Assembly (NCBI GenBank): GCA_965263295.1
Contig: OZ253665.1
Location: 992,001 to 1,056,000 of the forward strand
Origin: Spirochaetia bacterium
Lineage (GTDB): Bacteria > Spirochaetota > Spirochaetia > SP-2023
DNA length: 64,000 bases
Reading direction: 5' to 3'
Part shown: piece by piece, positions 54,443 to 57,700 of the stretch
How positions within the stretch are numbered: the first letter of the stretch is position 1
Layout: the number at the start of each line of letters is the position of its first letter
Notes under the pieces: model-generated
Told to the model about the DNA's origin: nothing
The model's input: the letters and a program-made list of their open reading frames with translations, nothing else
Database searches by the model: none
Made by a program: the position numbers and the translations under genes

Positions 54443-54763
54443 AGATTGCGAAGTCAAATATACAGAATTAAGGACACCGCGTAGAAAGTCAATAATTCTG
54501 ATAAAGAAAATCATTTTTTATCTCAAGATGATTAACTTATTACCGAATATAGGATATATCTTAGAGTCTTGTGCACCGGTCTGGCTCACAATAAAAGGAG
54601 GTGAATATCGGTTAAAAATACTTTTTTTGTAACCGTTTGCCACAGCGGCAATTTTTAGAAACGACTCTGAGAATTACCTTGAAGTCGTTTGTTTAACGTT
54701 TTCATTAGCGTTTAGGTAATTTATATTTTTAATTTTTTATATTTAATTTTAAGGAATTTCACA

Positions 54764-57700
54764 ATGAAAAACACAATAAAGAAAAAGTTTTTTCTAAATA
54801 CTGATATATATATATATATATATATATATATCAGTTCTACTGGCCGGATTAATATTTTCTTGCCAGGTCGAAGATTTTGACGATCCTAAGCCGACTGACT
54901 TGTCGAAGTTTATGGACAGTCACCTCGCTACTTTACAAATTTCGCTTGACGCAGATATTGCTACAGAAGAAGATGAAGATTTTGAAACTCAAATTTTAAA
55001 TAAAGTTGTAGATAAAGCCAATGAGGCGGTTGCCAATGGTGATTTATCACCAGACGCCAAGGATACTTTTAAGACCCGATTTACCAAGGAAATTTTATAT
55101 TTATCTGACTTAGTTGATACTGATTCGGATGAAAAAATTGACAAATGCACAGTCACAATTTCCGCCCACAACATGAGGAATTTGACCGGTTATGACTGGG
55201 CGCGAGAAAAGACTATCGAAATCAATACGGTCTCTTCTTCGATGAGTTTAACTGATCAATCTAGCGCTTCCTCCGAGCAAGTATCAGAAGAACGGTCTGG
55301 ACCTAACGAGCCGACTATGGGTGACTTCAGTCCGGCTTTACAGAAATTTGTCCCGACGACGGAGGGAGAAGGTCCGGGACCGAAGTCTAATAATAACAGT
55401 GGTGCTAAGATAGATTACGATAAATTAAAAGCTTTAAAAGAACTAGATGTTTCAGGAAAAGGCATAAAGTCACTGAAAGGAATAGAATATTTTATAGGTT
55501 TAGAAAATCTGAATTGCTCTAATAATCAGCTTACGGAACTGGATGTCAGTCAAAATACTAAGCTGAAATTGTTGAATTGCGATAATAACAAGCTCGCAAA
55601 ACTCGACGTCAGCAAAAATGAGGAGCTAGCATATCTGAATTGCTCTAAAAATAAAATTGCGAGCCTCAATATCAGCAAAAATAAGAACTTAGCATATCTG
55701 AATTGCCAGGAAAATGAAATTACAGAATTAAACATAAGTGGTAATCCGTTGCTTCAAAAAGATGAAACGAAATTATTGCATGATTCAGATGTAGTTGTAG
55801 AGGAAAGGCCCTCGCCATCTTCAGCGGCCAAAAAATCGATGTCGACGTCAGTAAGCAAGTCTGCAAGCGGCGGGGGAAGCGTTAAAATATCCAATTTTGT
55901 GAAAATTCCCGATGCTAATTTCAGGACTTATTTAAAAAATCTGGAAGAACTGAAGGATGCATTTATAGTTGACAAGATGGATCCCAATGCACAATCTGTA
56001 AAAGATTTAGATAAAATAAGTGTGCCAAACAAAGGCATAAAATCGCTGGAAGGCATACAATATTTTACAGGCTTAGAAAAGCTAGAATGCGATAGTAATG
56101 AGCTTGAACAACTGGATATCAGCAAAAATACTAAGCTGGAGAAATTGTCTTGCATTCGATGTAATCTTGATGAACTGGATCTCAGCCAAAATATTAATTT
56201 AAAGAATTTGAATTGCAATTGGAATCAGCTTGGAAAACTCAATGTCAGCAAAAATACTAAGCTGGAGGAGTTGTGTTGTGTCGAGTGTGGTCTAAGTGGC
56301 CTGGATGTCAGTAAGAATAAGATGCTAAAGATGCTTGGTGTCGCTAGTAATGAAGGGCTTGAGACCTTGGATGTCAGTAAGAATACTGGGCTGGAAGAGT
56401 TGTCTTGCGGTATGTGTAATAAGCTCCAAGGACTGGATCTCAGCAACAATAAGAATCTCAAGTTGTTGTCTTGCCCTTATTGTAATTTTAATAACCTGAA
56501 TGTCAGCCAAAATGCTAAGCTGGAGAAATTGTTTTGCCAGAATGGTGCTCTTAGCTCCTTGAATGTCAACCGGAATGCTAAGCTGCAGATGTTGGATTGC
56601 TCCAATAATACAATTGTTGAATTGAACATATCAAAAACCCTAGTAGGTAAATTGCCTTATAGTAAAAAAGAAAATTTTTGGGAAAGTCCAGAAAAATTGG
56701 CATGGAAAATGCAGCAGCTAAAGGTAGACTGCGGTGTTAAAATAACTGACTATTATTCTAAATTAAAACCAAAAAATTTTAAGAGACTTGGCAAGAAAAG
56801 ACCTCCAGATAAAGTAAAAAAATCTCAGATTAAAAATATTATTGATTCAGAATACTTGGAAGTGGATGACATTACGCTTGAGCCGGATAAAGATAAAGGT
56901 CAGTTAATAGTCCTTATTCAGAACCATGGAGATCCAAAGAAAATTCCTTTAGAAGGTTTTTACGATCTAAATGAAATAAACCTTATAGACAAGGTGAAAT
57001 CTTTGGTTCCTAGTGATTTTGGATCAATTGTCAGCGATCAGAAACTTCCAAGTGGAATAACAAAAGCTGACATTAAAGATCTTCAGGGTTTAGGTGCTTT
57101 GAAAGGTAAAGACATTCTATTGAATCATTATGACGAAACGGGTCAGTTGGTCGTCATACTTTTACATCATGGACCTACTAAATCCATTCTTTTGAAAAAT
57201 TTTAAAAATACGACTGGGGCTGGAGGAGCTCTTGATCTTAAATTTATGGAATATTTAAAGGGGAAATTGCCGGAGGATGCGTTTAAAGATGGCAAGATAA
57301 ACCCCGATGCACAATCCGTAAAAGATTTAGATGAAATAAATGTGCCAAACAAAGGCATAAAATCGCTGAAAGGCATACAATATTTTACCGGCTTAGAAAT
57401 ACTGGATTGCAATGGTAATGAGCTTGAACAACTGGATGTCAGCCGAAATATCAAGCTCAATTCTTTGAGCTGCGCTAAGAATCATCTTATTGAACTAGAT
57501 CTCAGCCAAAATACTGGGCTGCATTTCTTGTGGTGCAATGATAATAATCTCAAATCAATAGATGTGAGTAAAAATCGTTTTCTGCAGGAATTAAATTGCC
57601 AAGGGAATAGTATTACGGAATTGGACATAACGTTTAATGATTTGCTGAGAAGAAATCCCAGGGGTATAAAACGAGACGGAAATGTTACAATATTTGATTT

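Follow-up and report, generated by a model that had tools for sequence, protein, structure and literature searches.

The window analyzed here, 64,000 nucleotides of a single-contig genome (G000; 2,407,850 bp, 49.4% GC), contains behind trmB most of a giant gene with a GC content of 36 to 39%. Three FlaA matches above cut-off in this genome, compared with none in 14 control genomes, identify the organism as a spirochaete. The reading frame of the body is uninterrupted over 3,585 residues from the lipobox cysteine and ends 1,618 nt past the window (G000 position 1,057,618). The region around the start of the gene contains the following features.

54540..54750 (limits approximate), plus strand: upstream cassette, a probable promoter and 5′ leader, conserved in seven paralogues
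54637..54651, plus strand: conserved, terminator-like hairpin TTGCC-ACAGC-GGCAA with a T run behind it
54751-54755, plus strand: RBS AAGGA, 8 nt before ATG 54764, at a position shared with the paralogues
54764..54880, plus strand: 38-codon ORF from the true start ATG 54764 (OFF-phase product), with stop TGA at 54878-54880
54795..54797, plus strand: stop codon TAA of the body frame, located upstream of the tract
54804..54831, plus strand: perfect (AT)14 tract, the proposed switch, giving Ile/Tyr codons in every frame
54831..54863, plus strand: hydrophobic core and spirochaetal lipobox SVLLAGLIFS-C in the body frame, with the Cys codon TGC at 54861-54863
54912..54914, plus strand: downstream ATG taken by the deposited gene call, without a signal peptide and with no evident RBS

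Read from ATG 54764, the frame gives MKNTIKKKFFLNTDIYIYIYIYISSTGRINIFLPGRRF before it reaches the TGA. The distance from this ATG to the lipobox Cys is 97 nt (1 mod 3), which places the body one base out of frame. Up to position 54914 the only ATG, GTG or TTG codons of the body frame are TTG 54900 and ATG 54912, both downstream of the Cys. An initial annotation, made from the letters alone, had described this arrangement as a frameshift switch; on re-reading, its coordinates for the RBS, start, 38 codons and stop all held, as did its frame arithmetic, its body of more than 3,000 codons in the +1 frame with a TAA and no ATG before the lipobox, and its statement that the tract encodes Ile and Tyr in any frame. 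It had also predicted that gene callers would start at ATG 54912. The deposited protein, P0013 (3,568 aa), does so and lacks the signal peptide, so that both the lipoprotein and the switch are invisible in the annotation. The further claim that the gene is currently OFF stands for the G000 consensus sequence and for that consensus alone.

The sequence GLIFS-C behind the basic n-region MKNTIKKK agrees with the spirochaetal lipobox rule (A/G/S/N/C at −1, L/I/V/F at −3 or −4, no charged residue, and Cys at +1; PMC6529012). The giant protein is predicted to be lipidated and surface-exposed. The tract itself has the makings of a simple sequence repeat contingency locus: it is a long perfect repeat between start codon and body, its unit is not a multiple of 3, and repeat number alone sets the frame of an otherwise intact body. 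(AT)14 also exceeds the cut-off for dinucleotides, at least eight units, used in PMC5953494.

Approximately 200 to 250 bp of sequence upstream of the gene, and an N-terminal domain of 120 aa, are common to seven paralogues, which differ in the repeat modules that follow. Alignment of the upstream cassette (A5) gives a mean column identity of 61% and includes a block of invariant columns; a promoter scan of the cassette was at chance level (two sites versus 2.1 expected). Between positions 54590 and 54660 of the window, the cassette carries a conserved AAAAGGAGG together with the hairpin and T run in the seven paralogues, an element that could be an attenuator or a small leader element. The hairpin matched no Rfam family at gathering score, and the Rfam matches that did appear were discarded, being to miRNA models, located on the AT run and scoring far below cut-off.

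Domain architecture of the 3,585-residue protein

Three kinds of module make up the body of the protein.

54861..55226, plus strand: N-terminal domain of about 120 aa, of no named family, common to seven paralogues (alignment A1)
55500..62366 (span), plus strand: 21-residue IRREKO leucine-rich repeats in eight blocks, with 36 strict matches
56784..64000, continuing past the window end, plus strand: Lipoprotein_17-like repeats of about 80 aa, 20 in the whole gene

Profile searches with the N-terminal domain gave seven matches in G000 and eight among 1.84 billion (1.84e9) representative proteins; the family was absent from all 200 other genomes of the class that were searched. An atlas search with this domain returned EF-hand-like leads alone, under 0.9.

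The leucine-rich repeats follow the IRREKO consensus LxxLx(L/C)xxNxLxxLDLxx(N/L/Q)xx with its 21-residue period, as given in PMC2946307 (Matsushima et al.). With this pattern slightly relaxed, such that Cys was also allowed at N, 36 matches were obtained versus 0.02 per shuffle in 200 shuffles, and 24 of 35 spacings are exactly 21; PF12799 also scores above cut-off. The same paper places Treponema proteins in the class, whose LxxLxCxxNxLxxLDLxxN repeats are those found here; in the giant protein, they form eight separate blocks of one 3.6-kaa lipoprotein under a putative repeat switch. These repeats may be related to the InlJ-type adhesive leucine-rich repeat domain.

Nine of the Lipoprotein_17-like repeats lie amid the leucine-rich repeat blocks and are followed by a run of 11 that extends past the window end. 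PF04200 scores 114 bits on the whole protein (cut-off 22.4), with one stretch passing alone, and 10 of 16 aligned single repeats match it at E ≤ 0.1. A model of one repeat (pLDDT 82) has three strands after helices. Compared with the solved Lipoprotein_17 structure 3jvc, the model gives a weak match (Z 3.6, rmsd 3.7, 72 residues aligned, rank 19), the best Z in the fold search being 5.1. Mycoplasma surface proteins with PF04200, such as M. mobile MvspI with 16 copies, likewise carry many tandem Lipoprotein_17 repeats on a large lipoprotein, and the repeats are proposed to set length and flexibility there (10.1101/2022.09.07.507039); the giant protein differs from them in its spirochaete host and in the interleaving of the repeats with eight leucine-rich repeat blocks. 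Lipoprotein_17 is listed as a stalk domain of fibrillar adhesins in 10.1101/2021.12.07.471604. Judged by domain content, the giant is most likely a fibrillar adhesin or a variable surface antigen, in which leucine-rich binding blocks would be displayed on a Lipoprotein_17-like stalk.

AT tracts and reading frames across the genome

Alternating-AT runs of 6, 7, 8, 9 and 10 nt occur 754, 193, 38, 13 and 7 times in the 2.41-Mb genome. None is 11 to 17 nt long, and ten are 18 to 28 nt long; a first-order model predicts 5e-6 runs of (AT)9. Nine of these ten long tracts lie in signal-peptide leaders, between start codon and hydrophobic core, a placement with a chance probability below 1e-16 (for a generous target size and with paralogy ignored). 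Five of the nine are in frame (9, 11, 12, 12 and 13 units) and four are out of frame (11, 13, 14 and 14 units), the four OFF loci being split 2:2 between the two wrong phases. The search for paralogues with (AT)n between ATG and lipobox, proposed in the initial annotation, was thus positive: eight of the ten tracts have this position in lipoprotein genes, six of one family and two of another. The ninth leader tract, (AT)13 at G000:C1:1500847-1500872, belongs to an ABC substrate-binding protein of the Peripla_BP_2 family (PF01497), which extends the device to a gene for nutrient uptake; the OFF call for this gene depends on the start chosen, as an in-frame TTG is present. The tenth tract (G000:C1:96351-96376; 13 units) is noncoding and lies upstream of an EamA transporter gene, starting approximately 16 nt behind TTGACA, a promoter-like site; it is possibly a promoter or leader-length switch.

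Comparison among paralogues locates the frame difference in the tract. The in-frame paralogue 18122 has a near-identical leader with a single 4-nt gap, which falls at the tract; the difference of exactly two AT units between the leaders identifies the length of the tract as the lesion. An extra A in the flanking ctaaata, raised earlier as an alternative lesion, fails as an explanation, since the in-frame paralogues 18122, 1922792 and 2330208 have the same ctaaata flank as the giant gene and differ from it in tract length (12, 12 and 9 units). Repeat number varies from 9 to 14 among the paralogues. The expectation that in-frame length variants keep a usable leader is borne out within G000, where in-frame leaders with 9, 11, 12 and 13 units occur; such lengths stay usable because the unit reads as Ile/Tyr in all frames and never as a stop.

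These observations bear on the idea that the gene is a fixed pseudogene, or that translation re-initiates at ATG 54912 to give a protein with no signal peptide, the tract being a neutral by-product. The giant gene is missing behind trmB in all three genus relatives, in which other genes are found there, and its N-terminal family is absent from the 200 class genomes, suggesting that the gene is young or labile, a point in favor of this idea. Against this stand the lack of any stop across 3,585 codons, the absence of anything RBS-like before 54900 or 54912, and the confinement of perfect tracts to leaders, the paralogue with an interrupted tract (932846) being in frame. We therefore regard decay or re-initiation as very improbable. 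A TrmB scan of genome contigs returned only relatives of about 40% identity and no syntenic locus.

The gene with the interrupted tract (G000:C1:931620-932932; HIYYAYVQ at the tract) contains approximately 40 copies of a 15-nt SEDQP repeat and looks locked ON with a length-variable stalk. P0007, which is more distantly related, has the plain leader MKKISIILVTVFLMAGLIFSC. In the second family, a 583-aa mature lipoprotein encoded by two 100% identical copies (G000:C1:1898254 and 1978829) has no long tract.

Repeats of other kinds were also observed in G000. Two paralogous lipoprotein genes, 68% identical (G000:C1:1930729-1930777 and 1937638-1937786), carry a repeated 10-mer, (AAGCTACCTC)n, in the stretch from ATG to lipobox, one gene with 4 whole units and the other with 14; both genes are out of frame, and the 10-mer would be a second type of switch in this genome. 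On the minus strand at G000:C1:694411-694830, (CTGCT)84 splits a glycosyltransferase gene into halves in different frames (PF13439 in the 5′ half and PF00534 in the 3′ half), making it a candidate phase-variable glycosyltransferase. Within the window, (CCAG)5 at 36124-36143 lies in frame in the ORF 35748-37232; a cluster member of equal length, 494 aa, in another assembly gives no sign of variation at this repeat.

Other assemblies, a second lineage and known systems

Counterparts of the G000 genes were collected with the N-terminal domain profile (eight proteins), by further searches and by cluster look-ups; these are proteins, and their unit numbers are implied. P0018 is in frame, with 72 nt from Met to Cys versus 88 nt in the out-of-frame G000 gene 862481 (implied 6 versus 14 units), and with a body identity of 79%, it may be a paralogue. 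P0006 is in frame with 78 nt, compared with 80 nt in its out-of-frame G000 counterpart (10 versus 11 units; 89% identical), and P0011 (98.7% identical) is in frame with about 13 units versus 9 in G000 and with a different n-region frame. P0001 has the phase of G000. P0005, P0010, P0015 and P0020, whose G000 counterparts are in frame, are called from a downstream Met, which may reflect contig edges or caller choice. Because of the frameshift-like tails at the ends of P0001, P0014 and P0021, the sister assemblies seem to carry indel errors, and both the one-unit differences and the P0011 n-region may be errors. Comparison with related genomes had been proposed in the initial annotation. As inferred from the proteins, sister loci differ in phase between assemblies, and strain-to-strain variation of the tracts at these loci is likely.

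For the giant gene itself, a metagenome flank scan, profile and homologue searches and cluster look-ups found no in-frame allele. All four metagenome matches to the two tract flanks were unrelated; the homologue search with residues 1 to 190 returned nothing, although paralogues are known, and is thus insensitive; and the sole other member of the giant's cluster, P0014, is a C-terminal fragment. Comparison with four runs used contigs and skipped the repeat (54795-54839), where contigs break because the leaders are in common with paralogues. Contigs of runs X1 and X2 that flank the tract agree fully with the window over 463, 162 and about 1,065 nt. A related contig (depth 3.6) has in-frame gaps alone, of 21 and 3 nt, over its first 1 kb. 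A variant at 55341 that by itself would read as a stop was not counted, because a second change sits in the same codon.

A second lineage uses the same device on a larger scale. An (AT)9 run is present in 29 of 400 other genomes of the class, and when one locus was read in each of the 29, a clear lipoprotein-leader tract was found in G071 alone, a genome of another family. Its contig C1 contains 74 AT tracts of 20 to 28 nt, 68 of them between ATG and lipobox of lipoproteins: 11 in frame, 39 one unit above the in-frame length and 18 in the third phase. Against one-third, the p value is 0.002, an overstatement given the non-independence of paralogues. Among paralogues whose flanks are identical, the tracts span 20 to 28 nt. 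G000 family profiles gave no match among the G071 tract loci, and none of the three genus relatives of G000 (genomes 89 to 94% complete) has (AT)8, the N-terminal family or the 10-mer. A few G071 tracts lie in nonlipoprotein genes, for example at 336590 and 362710.

The G071 counts weigh on two further explanations. Expression could be leaky if RNA polymerase slipped, or ribosomes shifted frame, within the AT run; tract length would then tune its level, and the excess of 39 over 18 among out-of-frame leaders in G071, together with the narrow band of 18 to 28 nt in both genomes, could be read in this way. Transcript slippage is mainly known for homopolymer runs, the giant locus is in the other phase, the four OFF loci of G000 are evenly divided, and the G071 skew may stem from paralogue duplication or one-sided sequencing bias; we consider leaky expression unlikely. 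The second explanation is a consensus error, in which the repeat was miscounted in assembly and most of the population is in frame. Sequencing is prone to errors at dinucleotide runs, the giant frame is one unit from in-frame, and the sister assemblies show indel-like tails. This account, however, would require errors at four of nine G000 tracts and at 57 of 68 in G071, whereas only one of 108 orthologue-like genes in G000 (judged over 400 kb of the relative G003) is frameshifted, and that one is doubtful. The flanking X1 and X2 contigs moreover match the window letter for letter, and even a miscounted tract would remain a switch. An assembly miscount thus appears distinctly unlikely.

The contingency-locus interpretation of the initial annotation is supported by leader-confined tracts in mixed phases and by sister loci that differ in phase, and we conclude that the giant gene is probably subject to slipped-strand phase variation of the Opa or Helicobacter pylori oipA type. 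By precedent of those systems, (AT)n would gain or lose units during replication through slipped-strand mispairing. Whenever the distance from ATG to Cys is divisible by three, n-region, Ile/Tyr run and lipobox would be translated as one signal peptide, and the 3,585-residue protein would be lipid-anchored; at other tract lengths, translation would stop early and yield a short peptide, of 38 codons in the present phase. Slippage within a population, its reversibility, an ON state of the giant gene and the stochastic display of a costly surface protein would all belong to this model. With nine genes switching independently, a population of mixed surface types may result.

The Neisseria opa genes resemble the giant gene in having a repeat in the signal sequence, with the unit (CTCTT)n rather than AT. 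According to PMC13183285, fewer than one-third of opa genes are in frame, as in G071 (11 of 68). The opa targets are Opa outer-membrane proteins; here, the targets are lipoproteins with modular repeat bodies, and switching is read from sequence. Since the repeat is AT and Pfam finds leucine-rich repeats and Lipoprotein_17 alone, the likeness is in the working of the switch, and the giant is not an opa gene. The H. pylori genes oipA and hopZ carry a (CT)n tract where the signal peptide is encoded, and slipped-strand mispairing at this tract turns their expression ON or OFF; PMC4205683 gives 6 to 13 CT units for oipA, similar in size to (AT)14, and describes H. pylori as having no mutHLS-like pathway. 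The unit here is AT and the targets are lipoproteins, the giant protein does not belong to the oipA/hopZ family, and mutS and mutL are present and intact in G000, which rules out loss of mismatch repair and suggests that the slip rate may be modest.

The mechanism is textbook; the case differs from the known ones in its AT unit, in having lipoproteins as targets and a spirochaete as host, and in its intact mismatch repair. A search of the open-access full-text literature found no report of AT tracts in spirochaete lipoprotein leaders. In the deposited sequence, the missing signal peptide acts as an annotation trap that hides lipoprotein and switch alike. Surface variation in Borrelia and Treponema relies on gene-conversion systems. 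We tentatively propose, at somewhat less than even confidence, that (AT)n switches in leaders came to control much of the variable surface lipoproteome independently in two or more lineages of spirochaetes (eight lipoprotein genes here and 68 in G071, in families without detected homology, and with no tract in three genus relatives). Tracts would be held at approximately 9 to 14 units, each gene one or two slips from flipping. Combined with a modular exchange of C-terminal repeats downstream of a common promoter-leader cassette, such switching would constitute a third spirochaetal system of surface variation, and one of the largest single-repeat phasomes. Up to 82 putative phase-variable loci, counting all repeat types, are given for Neisseria genomes in PMC5953494, so the 68 of one type in G071 are many and within the known range. 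The switch would mark this uncultured spirochaete as one that randomizes its surface, and such behavior would usually point to selection on surface antigens by a host or predator.

AT tracts also occur in a different setting in three genomes of family f36 (G039, G279 and G150), where tracts of 23 to 29 nt (loci L118, L119 and L120) follow TTGACA directly and are themselves followed by a −10-like sequence and an RBS; these are candidate promoter-spacer switches.
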